Shown: positions 51,401 to 62,585 of the stretch, in pieces
How the letters are laid out: every line of letters begins with the position of its first letter
How positions within the stretch are numbered: position 1 is the first letter of the stretch
NCBI RefSeq assembly: GCF_002854065.1
Contig: NZ_CP024148.1
Origin: Escherichia coli
GTDB taxonomy: Bacteria; Pseudomonadota; Gammaproteobacteria; Enterobacterales; Enterobacteriaceae
Direction: 5' to 3' (one strand)
DNA: 62,585 nucleotides
Made by a program: the position numbers

Positions 51401-54400
51401 TAGTCAGAATACTTTTGTTATTGACAATGGCGCATCTACATTTTTACCGTTAATTCAGTATTTCAATGATAACTGTGTTATGGACATGTTTGAAGATGTA
51501 GAACAAGACGTTTATATCCATACTGTTATCGTTGGTGGACAAGCTCTTGCGGATACCTTGCAGGGATTTGAAGAACTGAAAGAACTGGTTAAAGGAAGTA
51601 AGGTAAAACTTATTGTCTGGATAAATGAATTTCAGGGTATTCCAGCACTTGAAAATATCCCATTAATAGAAACTAAATTCATTGAAAAAAACAAGGATGT
51701 AATCGCTGGCGTTGTGGTTATTCAGGACAGAAAAAGTGATGCCTTTGCCTCTGACATCAAAGAGCTAACAGAAAAATCACTAACACTGAAAGAAGCTCTT
51801 GAGTCCGACCATTTTGGATTAATGGCTAAATCACGATTAAAACGAGTCTTCAATGACATTTACAAACAATTAGATAGCATCTATGACGATGAACACGGTG
51901 AATAATATGAGTACAGTTAATCAGCCAGAATTAAAACAGCCTGAAAAGGCTGTTTCCAGTGAAGATATTGATAATTTTATTGTTGATGTATTCAAGGAGA
52001 CAGGGCATAAAATATCAAAAGATGATCCAGTTATTTCATTAATTTTTCTGAACCAAAAGATACAGGAAAAATTCAGCAATGAGTTACAAGCTAACTTCAC
52101 AGCCCTGTCTGAGGGCTTCAGACAGGTCGTTTCATCTGTAGAAAATGACTATATTCAAAGATTCAAGAATATTGTTGAGACGTGCGGCGATCTGGATAAT
52201 GAAATAAAAGAAAAAGTAGAAGAGGGAAAAAACGATCTAAAAGAAACAAGTATTGAGGTAAAAGAAAAATTAACAGATGATATTATTGAACTCATATCTG
52301 GAATTAAACGCAACCAGGAAAAAAACAACAAATTATATGAAGAAAAGTTGAAGTCATTATCTAAGGCTGTAAAACCCTTCAGTACAAGAACAGCCATTGC
52401 AATTTGTGCCTTGTGCACATTATGCCTGTCTGCGGCATTTTCTGGCGCAACCTGGTATGTTGCACAACATGAAAAAGAGGCAAGCCTGCGCTTCTATGCA
52501 AGAGCTTTTCTTGATATGAAAAAAATAACTGAAGAGAGCATGAGAAAATTACCAAAATCAGACCAGCAAAATATAAAACTCAAACTAGACGAAATTGATT
52601 CAAGAAAACCATAGATATGAAAAGGAGTCACTAATGACAACTTTTACCGACGACGACAAGAAACTAATTAAAGAAATCAGGGAGCGAATCGGCAGCCTGG
52701 ACGTGCGAGACAATATTGAGCGTCGGGCTTATGAAATTTCTCTGGCATCGCTGGAAGCAGAAGCGCCAAATTTGCCTGGTGGTTTCACAATTGAAGAAGC
52801 AAAAGAATTACACGAAAATCTGGTAAAAAGTCACGTAAGCAAGGCTTTAAGTGGCGAAAAAATGAAAAAAGAAAATCGTGATGCCGATTTGCGCTGGATT
52901 CATGGCGTAATAGTTCAGGCTGCGTGGTTTGTGAAAGCATCACTAGGGCAGAACGCATAGTGCGTACCTGCTTTTCTCCTGGCAACGGTGGATCTTCCGC
53001 TTCCTCGTCGCTCGCTCGCTATGCTCGGTCGCTGGACTGCGGCGAGCGGTTAGCTATCAAAAAAAATCCCCGCACAACGCGGGGATAGTTTTATTTATAT
53101 GCAAGTTCATGACGTGCCGCCTGAGCCAGAAAATGGCTACGATCTTTGTATACGCCACCACTTTCTCTCACATATCCATCAATACGACGAATCAATACAT
53201 CAGGCAATGAAATATTAATACGTTGTTGTTTGCCCTCAATTTCTGACAAATCAACATCAATTACAAACCAGCTATCACAGTGGTTATAATTTGGGTTGGC
53301 GGAATAAGTCAAACACCCTTCATCATGAATATCATCAACAGAATGAGCACCGCTTATTACCATCTCTTCCACGATTGCCAATATCGCTTCACGCGCCATT
53401 GCGGGTATTTCTGCCTGAGAATCAGCAGCAGAAACACATCCAAAATCAAAGCAATCAAAAACCGGAACGGTGATACCGTATGCTGTATGATCATCTTTCG
53501 GTGTTTCGACACCAACAGAAAAGAACATGGCTACCTCCAAAGTCGGCGGGGATTAAATCCCCGCCATTTTTTTGATCGATCTGACAGTACCTAGCGGCAA
53601 GTCCTTTTTAGGATGAGGAACAGGAAAAGTTTTTCCTGTTATTGGCGACCACCATATCTGGTGACTGCTTGCCTTATGCCGTTTCAACTCGCAACCAGCA
53701 GCTATCAGTTCTTTCAACAGGTCAGCAGATTTCATATGTCCTCCCTAACCTGAAAACAATTATACACACGCATACATACAAAAGCAAATTATTTCATTCG
53801 TATGACTTATGAAACACACTGTAAAGACAGTTCAATCTTTACAGTGTAAATCATTTATCCAGTTTTATCGCTATGCATGTGATACATAGAAAATCATATA
53901 GTGTTTTACTATATGATACCTGATTGACACTTTTAACTGCACATCTCATCATTTACATCGTAAAGACAAACATAGCTTTACAATGTAAAGCTATGTAATT
54001 AAACACTCCGTGTCCCTGATAAGGAAAAAAAATGGCTCAACCAACCCCAGAAAAGATACTGGCAATCATAGATGATCATGATCGCGCACAAAAAAAACAA
54101 CGCAACAAAAACGTCTTCATTTATTTATGTCTCTGCTTGGCAATTATTGGAGTGGTCGCGCATTCCTTTATATCAACGTTTCGTCTTGATGGTGTAGCCG
54201 TCCTTACAATTCTTTTGGGCGTGTCAGCAATCGCATTTTTTCTACATTATGTAGAATCAGGGAAAGGCCAGATTCTTAGCAGTGACCGCATATTGTCCAT
54301 ACTCGCTCAAACCAAAGATTACCCCACAATTCGACGTAAAGTTGTTAATCGCTTGCTCTCCGGTTCAAAACTCACGGGTAAAGATGAAGAGTACATATTC

Positions 54401-60400: not shown

Positions 60401-62585
60401 AAACAGCACGAACTTTATTGAAACACTTTTCAAAATATTCTTTCGGATATTTTGGGGGAAAAGTGATTTGTTTTTTCAAATACCAGGGCTGAGGCTGCTT
60501 TTTACGTGTTTTCTCTGCTACAGCATCTTTCTTCTGTACTTTCTTGTTTTCATTAACTGCTGATTTTTGTACTTCCTGCGGCTTTTCATTCACCACAGGA
60601 TTTTCTGGCATGACCAGAACGCGGCGTTTTTTGACCACAATCACGGGTGTTTTTTTGGGCTGCATACTCGCCTCAATAATTGCTGTCATATTGACTAATT
60701 ATACCATATTCACCAGTTAATATCCTGAAAATACATGGAAAAAGGGGGTATCCGTACAGAATACCCCCTTTGTAAAGGCGCTTAATGCCAGAACCACATC
60801 ATCCCCAAAAAGGCGGGCTTTCGCCCGCCTCCGGGTTGCTACTTACCGCCGGATTCGTAAGCCATGCTTGCCGTAACCTCCCTGTATCCGTCCTTCAGCC
60901 GGATTTCGCACAGGCGATTCCGGGTCAGGAGTGTGAATATTAACAACGTGCAGCACACGATTAATACGCACCAGATAAGGGCGTTTCCCGGTAGTTTCAT
61001 GGCCTTCTTCTCCTTGCGTAACGCGCGGTAAGAGGCTATCCTGATGTTGTTCAAGCATTGGGATCGCCTCGTGGGTTAATGAAAAATTAACTACGGGGCT
61101 TTCTTCTTTCTGCCGCACAACAAGATACAAACCACCTTTTCGCCATGAGGCAGAAAGCCTCAAGCGCCAACAACATTATATATCGACCAGAAACTTGAAA
61201 ATACATGGTATTGCGTAAAGGGCGGTAAAAGTCTATCCTGGTGTTGTTGAAGTATTGGGATCGCCTCGTGGGTTAATGAAAAATTAACTACGGGGCTTTC
61301 TTTTTTCTGCCAGACAACAGGATACAGTGCGCCTTATATCCCCGTCCTTCAGGGCGTGGAGGATGTCAAATATTGACCAGGAATTAAATTCCCAGCTTTC
61401 GGCGTGGACTATACAGTGTGTGATTCACCACGATGAATCCTTTGTTGATCCACTGTGTTACCTGCGCAGGTTGAACTCCGGTCAGCCTGGCGAACGATGC
61501 CTGATTCCCCCGATAGAACTTGTTGATGTATTCAATCAAAGGCATTTTTTAATTCTCCGAAACAACGCAAAATCATATAGTAATTTACTATATGATTTTT
61601 ATTTCGCAAGTGATTAACTCATCGGATTTCTTTGTAGTTAACGAAACGTTAAATTTAGTTTGTGCCTGGAATGGCACGCAAGAAGCACACTAGCATTATT
61701 ATTTTGATCAAAACGCTATTTCCCCCGTCATTGGGGGGCTTTCTTTTTTGATGCCGCGCCAGCGGCATGGAAGGCGGCACTCCGTTGTTACATATGATAC
61801 TGGAGTAAAACCGCCGAAGCCCGGCGTAAGCCGGTACTGATTGATAGGTTTCACCTTACCTATCCCCATCCTGCTAAGCCATACCCGCTTTCAGCCATGA
61901 AATAGCTTTTGTGCGCGGTCGGAGTGGTCCCGACAAGGGTTTACCCGCAGTCGGGGCGTATCTCCGCGTTAGCGGGCCGCCAGGACCGCTTACGAGCGTG
62001 TACTTGGTACTTCCAGCCAGAAGACTGACAGCCATGTAATTTCTTAGTTACAACATCCATTATTGAAAGCGATGTTGTTCCCGCCCTTCGGGCGGGGGCG
62101 GCGGCGCTTTTCAGTGATGGGTTGGGCGCTGTGGCTGAGTATTTGCAGCGTTTTTTTGTAAGAGGGTTGGAGGGGCTTTGTTTTTCATTAGGCAGAAGTC
62201 CATATGCCCGCCGCGAAGCGGTGGGAGGTACTTTTATATTCTGAGCGGCGCGGCGTTAGCCGCTGCAAGCGAAGGCATTTTTGTAATTATCCACAGTTGT
62301 TTCAAAGATAAATATTTTCCCTGCGGCGAAGCAACGCAGGGGATTAAAGAACAGGGGTTAAGAATATATTGCGGGTTTGATGTTCTATGTTTGCTGCTTT
62401 CTGAAGCTATTCCTTTGCGGGTTTTTGTGGATAACCGAAGGCGTTTTTACTCCGATACCCTATTGCGGCCATCAAAAAACTGTCAGAGCGGGACAAAATG
62501 AAAAACGGTCGTCAAATATGAGGAATTTCATGAAATGCAGGCAACACGAAAAGCCCCGAAGGGGCTGAAGAGAGTGCCGATTGTA

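Follow-up and report, generated by a model that had tools for sequence, protein, structure and literature searches.

A probable Cro-like regulator with two candidate operators on an IncI2 plasmid of Escherichia coli

Introduction

Conjugative plasmid backbones are controlled by global repressors with scattered operators, such as KorA/KorB in IncP plasmids and ArdK/StbA/KorA in IncW and IncN plasmids. Among phage regulators, lambda Cro and its lambdoid relatives have an α+β fold and 17-bp pseudo-palindromic operators, and YdaS (PF15943; PDB 8c7k) is a Cro-like protein of the Rac and CP-933P cryptic prophages. The locus considered here lies on a stretch of 62,585 nucleotides from Escherichia coli (contig NZ_CP024148.1, assembly GCF_002854065.1), the whole of which is referred to as the window; it comprises a gene for a 53-amino-acid (53-aa) helix-turn-helix (HTH) protein, a palindrome just upstream of this gene (site 2), and a second copy of the palindrome ~7.7 kb away (site 1), in front of a gene for a 147-aa protein. 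IncI2 plasmids such as pGZ49273 are 100% identical to window bases 53000–62585, and metagenomic contigs continue from 62585 into position 1; the window is therefore a complete circular 62.6-kb IncI2 plasmid, of the mcr-1-type resistance kind.

The layout of the locus is that of the Cro family, a 17-bp dyad operator that would overlap the promoter, while the protein has no detectable sequence membership in that family. In further comparison to lambda Cro there is neither an adjoining CI repressor gene nor an OR1-3 array, the gene is solitary, in a moron-like position in P2/HP1-like prophages and beside the origin in plasmids, and the protein carries a conserved C-terminal YSPRRKL motif. Compared to YdaS, it falls under the Pfam cut-off, is half the length of 8c7k and has no YdaT-like neighbour. 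As proposed here, it would resemble KorA/KorB and ArdK/StbA in being a small plasmid-encoded DNA-binding protein that controls its own gene and a distant leading or maintenance promoter, thereby allowing a burst of expression after transfer; it differs from them in having two operators only, in belonging to an unrelated family, and in that the cassette also occurs in prophages. Unlike the small HTH autoregulators of the Aca and C-protein types, it has no co-transcribed acr or restriction-modification gene, as it is monocistronic in all three contexts seen.

Literature searches on the operator string and on regulators of IncI2 plasmids gave no account of the 53-aa protein or of the site, and no relevant occurrence of the string. 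A study of PcnR on pHNSHP45 considered three putative regulators (CaiF/GrlA-like, PcnR and CopG-like), the 53-aa protein not being included (PMC8053102), and the terms 'operator' and 'palindrome' are absent from a hicAB study on the same plasmid family, the text of which also provides no coordinates of transcription starts (PMC11878559). Comparative data largely bear out the interpretation given below, and the locus appears to be a real, previously undescribed example of a familiar plasmid control circuit; the gain is incremental because this type of circuit is textbook. IncI2 plasmids are the principal carriers of mcr-1, and a fourth IncI2 regulator with a defined operator and a distant target would be a testable node in the control network of the leading and maintenance region. 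This region also houses hicAB, which has a known effect on plasmid competition (PMC11878559). The protein would further provide a first functional handle on PHROG 10103, an uncharacterised phage and plasmid family of ~650 clusters at 50% identity.

The Duplicated Palindrome

The preliminary description had placed one palindromic operator at two distant sites, and its coordinates proved correct throughout to within 1–2 bases. The sequence CATATAGT-N5-ACTATATG is present exactly twice in the window, at 53895–53915 with the spacer GTTTT and at 61574–61594 with the spacer AATTT. Searching with the pattern CATATAGTNNNNNACTATATG and tolerating up to two mismatches returned only two matches, both with 0 mismatches, against a chance expectation of 0.01 (the mean of 100 dinucleotide-preserving shuffles, none of which gave two). 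The stretch common to both sites is longer than had been claimed, at 28 nt (AAAATCATATAGT..TTTACTATATGAT, 53890–53917 and 61569–61596) with 26 of the 28 positions identical. No third exact TATAGT-N5-ACTATA core is present in the 62,585 bases; the sole copy with one mismatch, at 36629, falls within a 652-aa open reading frame (ORF) and is at about chance level. As described before, site 1 is found between hicA and the 147-aa gene, 6 nt 5' of a TTGACA hexamer (53924–53929), and the end of site 2 is 26 nt 5' of the ATG (61545) of the minus-strand 53-aa ORF.

The Putative 53-aa Regulator

The 53-aa ORF had been proposed to encode an HTH regulator, and the comparison of homologues supports a genuine, strongly constrained gene. 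Homologues that are 83–89% identical show 20–30 synonymous versus 4–14 non-synonymous differences (dN/dS 0.02–0.07, dS at least 1), an alignment of 20 homologues contains an invariant Q-x-T-x-W ... LYSPRR pattern, and PHROG 10103, a phage family of unknown function, is matched with an E value of 1.1e-33 (residues 1–52 on profile positions 10–61 of 62). A profile search recovers 645 cluster representatives at E ≤0.001, including tandem two-domain proteins and C-terminal fusions. NCBIfam gave no match to the protein; NCBI calls some homologues 'helix-turn-helix domain-containing protein', and the ORF is missing from, or unannotated in, many database records. The label 'YdaS-like' did not hold, as PF15943 is matched at 17.1 bits (E 0.0047, residues 13–35 only), below the gathering cut-off of 30 bits; 17 of 20 family members match this profile at E ≤0.01 (best E 3e-5), these being E values and not bit scores set against the cut-off. 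A Cro-like member of PHROG 10103 is the better fit. In the AlphaFold2 model (pLDDT 89.7), three helices are accompanied by a β-hairpin, and a Foldseek search against the PDB returned generic HTH matches only, none of them significant; 'Cro-like HTH' is used here as a reasonable description.

The plasmid gene is solitary, with the origin on one side and a sok-like repeat on the other, and the prophage copies are located beyond the tail genes, outside any immunity region. A YdaT-type partner is absent, and the protein is therefore not part of a YdaS/YdaT-type pair. A type II toxin-antitoxin system with an HTH antitoxin was also considered and rejected, as none of the three settings (plasmid, mini plasmid and prophages) has a co-oriented ORF next to the gene. 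The -10 element of the candidate σ70 promoter (Table 1) sits in the operator spacer; this promoter scores under the promoter-scan threshold, and a consistent placement of -35 and -10 relative to the palindrome was not found by eye across the cassettes, leaving the promoter assignments tentative. The sole copy seen inside a three-gene cassette is a 63%-identical homologue in a Providencia phage. In this lambdoid phage (PSTNGR2lys, 22142–23401) the domain is the middle gene of an antisense cassette, with late-regulation genes on one side and lysis genes on the other.

Conservation of the Putative Operator with Its Gene

The core TATAGT-N5-ACTATA precedes all of the homologues in the elements listed next (83–89% identical, with that of Serratia p75 at 63%), and the palindrome ends ~23–35 nt before the start codon. 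Gene and core occur together in IncI2 plasmids, including R721 and a mouse-gut sublineage; in a 39.5-kb (mini) IncI2-like plasmid, where the gene also follows rep and the origin; in Pectobacterium, Klebsiella and Salmonella prophages, in which the solitary gene lies past the tail-fibre genes of a P2/HP1-like phage and the chromosomal insertion sites differ; and on two IMG/VR contigs. In Serratia plasmid p75, two tandem operators precede the gene of a 150-aa protein whose N-terminus is the 53-aa domain. Synonymous sites between these genes are saturated, and unconstrained DNA would therefore have diverged. Several prophages have a terminator directly upstream of the palindrome, so that the promoter must overlap it. 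The outer arm changes are uncompensated (ATCA to TTTA, ATAA or GAAA) and the inner TATAGT/ACTATA is fixed, which is how protein half-sites, and not the strands of an RNA stem, behave. Where the recognition helix is altered, in a 50%-identical homologue, the dyad in front of the gene is a different one. The region upstream of the Providencia operon contains no TATAGT dyad and no inverted repeat, and is uninformative on the operator; no further operators were found in ~18 kb of P2-like structural genes of one prophage contig. Altogether, this is strong comparative evidence for the prediction that site 2 is the autoregulatory operator of the 53-aa gene, in agreement with the earlier placement of an operator just upstream of a small regulator's own gene.

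In a scan of 241 million metagenomic records, 35 exact palindromes were recovered: 16 adjoin the 53-aa gene, 13 precede the 147-aa gene by ~117 nt, and six are on unrelated contigs that have other spacers and no match to the window. Both sites are present together on six long contigs, and every enterobacterial copy adjoins one of the two genes. A search of 5,426 complete E. coli genomes placed the site on plasmids only. The 20-base palindrome had four matches among species-representative genomes, all in Clostridia metagenome-assembled genomes without a regulator homologue, and these are uninformative.

Two observations on related loci may be added. On Serratia plymuthica p75 (11503–11545), where the tandem operators are located, the 150-aa protein overlaps a tyrosine recombinase gene. 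On Salmonella pCFSAN044875 (11781–11805), the 50%-identical homologue is preceded, at a distance of 200 bp, by a perfect palindrome, TAAAATCATATC-N1-GATATGATTTTA; this palindrome has an outer AAAATCATAT arm in common with the IncI2 site and lacks the TATAGT core.

The Distant Site and the 147-aa Gene

The 147-aa protein belongs to no family in Pfam, NCBIfam or PHROG. Hydrophobic stretches seen by eye in its N-terminal half suggest a putative membrane protein, and distant homologues of its gene adjoin traR in IncF plasmids and are also present in IncI1 plasmids. The operator centre at site 1 (53905) is 21.5 bp upstream of the -35 centre of the predicted promoter. Many IncI2 plasmids match the intergenic region between hicA and the 147-aa gene only from 53890 rightwards, and pECJS-61-63, which has another left flank with a decayed hicB and no hicA, retains the palindrome, the promoter and the 147-aa gene. 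In 11 IncI2 variants, representing two left flanks and target proteins that are 71–100% identical, the operator core, -35, spacer and -10 are nearly invariant; the core and right arm are unchanged in all 11, the outer left arm is altered in two, and the -10 is CATCAT or CATTAT. The IncI2-like plasmid without the 147-aa gene has no site 1, only the putative autoregulatory site. These data support the view that the distant site 1 has been kept as a component of the promoter region of the 147-aa gene, which is the probable regulated target. A different dyad lies downstream of the predicted -10 and ahead of the start codon; nearly invariant in the same 11 variants, it is assigned to a second regulon (discussed below), which would give this promoter two kinds of operator.

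In the pO157-like E. coli plasmid p07_3337-1 (a 150-kb toxB plasmid), a fragment of the IncI2 leading region is set between insertion sequence elements (8203–13900); it contains hicAB, site 1 and the 147-aa gene, together with small genes. The site-1 query matched one place only in this record, and site 2 appears to be absent. The plasmid may represent a natural operator without its regulator.

Proposed Mechanism and Alternative Explanations

The data are best read as a single regulator acting through two operators, because the HTH gene is real, the palindrome is its conserved partner and the distant copy is conserved as well; we consider it probable that this Cro-like protein holds the 147-aa gene under the same control, most likely dampening it. 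The 53-aa protein would likely bind as a dimer to the 17-bp dyad TATAGT-N5-ACTATA, the ATCA/TGAT flanks of which are conserved, and the operator copy at its own gene, overlapping the promoter and start region, would mediate negative autoregulation. The IncI2 backbone would have recruited a second operator just upstream of the -35 of the 147-aa gene, placing this gene of the leading or maintenance region under the same regulator, so that a newly transferred plasmid could express the target until the regulator builds up. From general knowledge of MOBP plasmids, the leading region is presumably to the right of oriT (~50.4–50.7 kb), and site 1 would thus reach the recipient early, with the regulator gene following ~7.7 kb later. 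The preliminary description had spoken of one small repressor controlling at least two promoters; conservation upholds one regulator with two operators, whereas repression, like binding, dimer stoichiometry and post-transfer timing, is something that we infer from the sequences. Its proposal of control at site 1 has in its favour that the site is kept with the 147-aa promoter. The operator does not overlap the TTGACA/CATCAT core, however, and is centred ~54 bp upstream of the predicted start, which makes direct occlusion of the core promoter unlikely. Dampening would most likely arise by blocking of an AT-rich UP-like region and/or by shutting off an overlapping leftward promoter toward hicAB; UP-like interference, leftward promoter shut-off and even activation are all conceivable at site 1, and dampening of the 147-aa gene is favoured, if only modestly. 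The plasmid can probably do without the regulator: transposon data on TP114 indicate that maintenance requires only repA and the markers (PMC7508951), and the pO157-like plasmid has site 1, apparently without site 2.

With the same protein and operators, site 1 could instead govern the leftward hicAB transcript or switch between overlapping divergent promoters, which we regard as unlikely, though it is the foremost of the alternatives. The operator contains the -10 of a minus-strand TTAAAA-17-TATAGT, an arrangement also seen in the autoregulatory cassette, and does not contain the plus-strand promoter; both kinds of left flank have a hicA or hicB gene to the left, and two promoters are known for hicAB of E. 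coli K-12 (cited in PMC11878559). IncI2 homology nevertheless breaks immediately left of the palindrome, whereas the right side is conserved up to the 147-aa gene, the leftward -35 TTAAAA is weak, and site 1 is still intact in a variant that has lost hicA and has a degenerate hicB. An improbable further reading concerns cross-regulation between phage and plasmid, or an immunity-like interaction, at the leading-region gene during establishment, in which the operator and regulator cassette would be a free-standing module common to IncI2 plasmids and P2/HP1-like prophages. As these share one recognition helix and one operator core, the protein made from a prophage copy would bind the operators of an IncI2 plasmid entering the cell, and that made from the plasmid copy those of the prophage.

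That site 1 is a passenger operator, brought in by mobile-element recombination and without regulatory consequence whether bound or not, is very improbable. The leading region is mosaic with breakpoints that adjoin site 1, the site is the Pectobacterium prophage operator down to an identical spacer, and the pO157-like plasmid retains it with site 2 apparently absent; set against this, all IncI2 sublineages examined retain site 1 at a constant spacing to the -35, while the neighbouring coding sequence has drifted to 71% identity, and all 13 metagenomic copies without an adjacent 53-aa gene are at the site-1 position. We give hardly any credence to the palindromes being RNA hairpins or weak bidirectional terminators, or being bound by a host protein or another plasmid protein. 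Their folding as RNA yields -10 to -13 kcal/mol and T runs follow site 2 on both strands, but the stems consist almost wholly of A-U pairs and were not recognised by the terminator scan; the lack of a T run in the prophage copies, together with these stems and the uncompensated arm changes, led to rejection of the terminator reading. As for another binding protein, the 53-aa HTH protein is the only one that always travels with the site, and the E. coli chromosome has no copy of this site.

Other Elements of the Region

Table 1. Coordinates of features in the 62,585-nt window; gene order without coordinates is that of an annotated relative
Feature	Position	Strand	Remarks
repA	spans window ends	-	order from annotated relative
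DnaA box TTATCCACA	62291–62299		read in sequence; region between repA and 53-aa ORF probably holds the origin
Site 2	61569–61599		perfect 31-bp palindrome, 15-nt arms and one central base; core 61576–61592
Candidate σ70 promoter, 53-aa gene	61582–61609	-	TTGCGA (61609–61604), 16-nt spacer, TAAATT (61587–61582); read from sequence
53-aa Cro-like HTH regulator gene (MPLIEYINKFYRGNQASFARLTGVQPAQVTQWINKGFIVVNHTLYSPRRKLGI)	61384–61545	-	after origin region; ribosome-binding site GGAG 9 nt before ATG; without annotation in the relative's record
sok	60998–61169		Rfam; part of hok/sok, next after 53-aa ORF
pcnR (ProQ/FinO gene)			follows hok/sok in relative
parA and ribbon-helix-helix pair			follows pcnR in relative
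Small minus-strand genes		-	series between parA pair and 147-aa gene
Repeat of 114–450 nt, three to four copies	55530–55985, 56856–56969, 57528–57983, 58438–58891
Second dyad, copies	53813–53852, 53952–53991, 54958–54997, 58932–58971, 58957–58996, 59002–59041
147-aa gene	54032–54475	+	function unknown; hicAB next in relative
Dyad GTAAAGACA-N7-CTTTACA	53952–53991		between predicted -10 and 147-aa start codon
Predicted promoter, 147-aa gene	53924–53952	+	TTGACA-17-CATCAT; promoter scan 10/12 matches
Possible leftward promoter	53908–53936	-	TTAAAA-17-TATAGT; scan 9/12 matches; -10 is right operator arm; toward hicAB
Site 1	53890–53917		core TATAGT-N5-ACTATA at 53897–53913; arms ATCATATAGT / ACTATATGAT
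hicA	53553–53735	-
mobC and relaxase			further along in relative

The second operator-like dyad, (ACA)nTGTAAAGACA-N7-CTTTACA, is commoner than the TATAGT palindrome: copies are found at the promoter of hicAB, within the leader sequence of the 147-aa gene, before a truncated hicB-like ORF (54582–54962, minus strand) and three times upstream of parA (59052). This distribution suggests that a ribbon-helix-helix protein may co-regulate partition, hicAB and the 147-aa gene, with HicB or a 94-aa ParG/CopG-like protein (59791–60075) as suggested candidates. A G+C-rich hairpin, GGCGGGGATTAAATCCCCGCC, between hicA and hicB (53545–53565) agrees in both location and form with the internal hicAB terminator reported for IncI2 in PMC11878559.

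Each copy of the 114–450-nt repeat is just 5' of a small minus-strand gene in what is presumed to be the leading region, and one copy folds as single-stranded DNA with a z score of -4.5. The repeats are candidate single-strand promoters (Frpo/ssi-like), and the ORFs called within them look spurious. The leading region also contains two identical copies of a terminator-like 23-nt element, AAAAAGGGGCGATTAAGCCCCTG (54551–54573 and 58047–58069).

A 125-nt stretch that overlaps the Rfam sok (61014–61138) recurs at 88% identity directly downstream of the 53-aa gene (61211–61335), where it may be what is left of another hok/sok locus. Next to it, 45 bp (61327–61372) have 135 matches in E. coli chromosomes at ~91–93% identity, and an inverted copy is located at 57998–58039.

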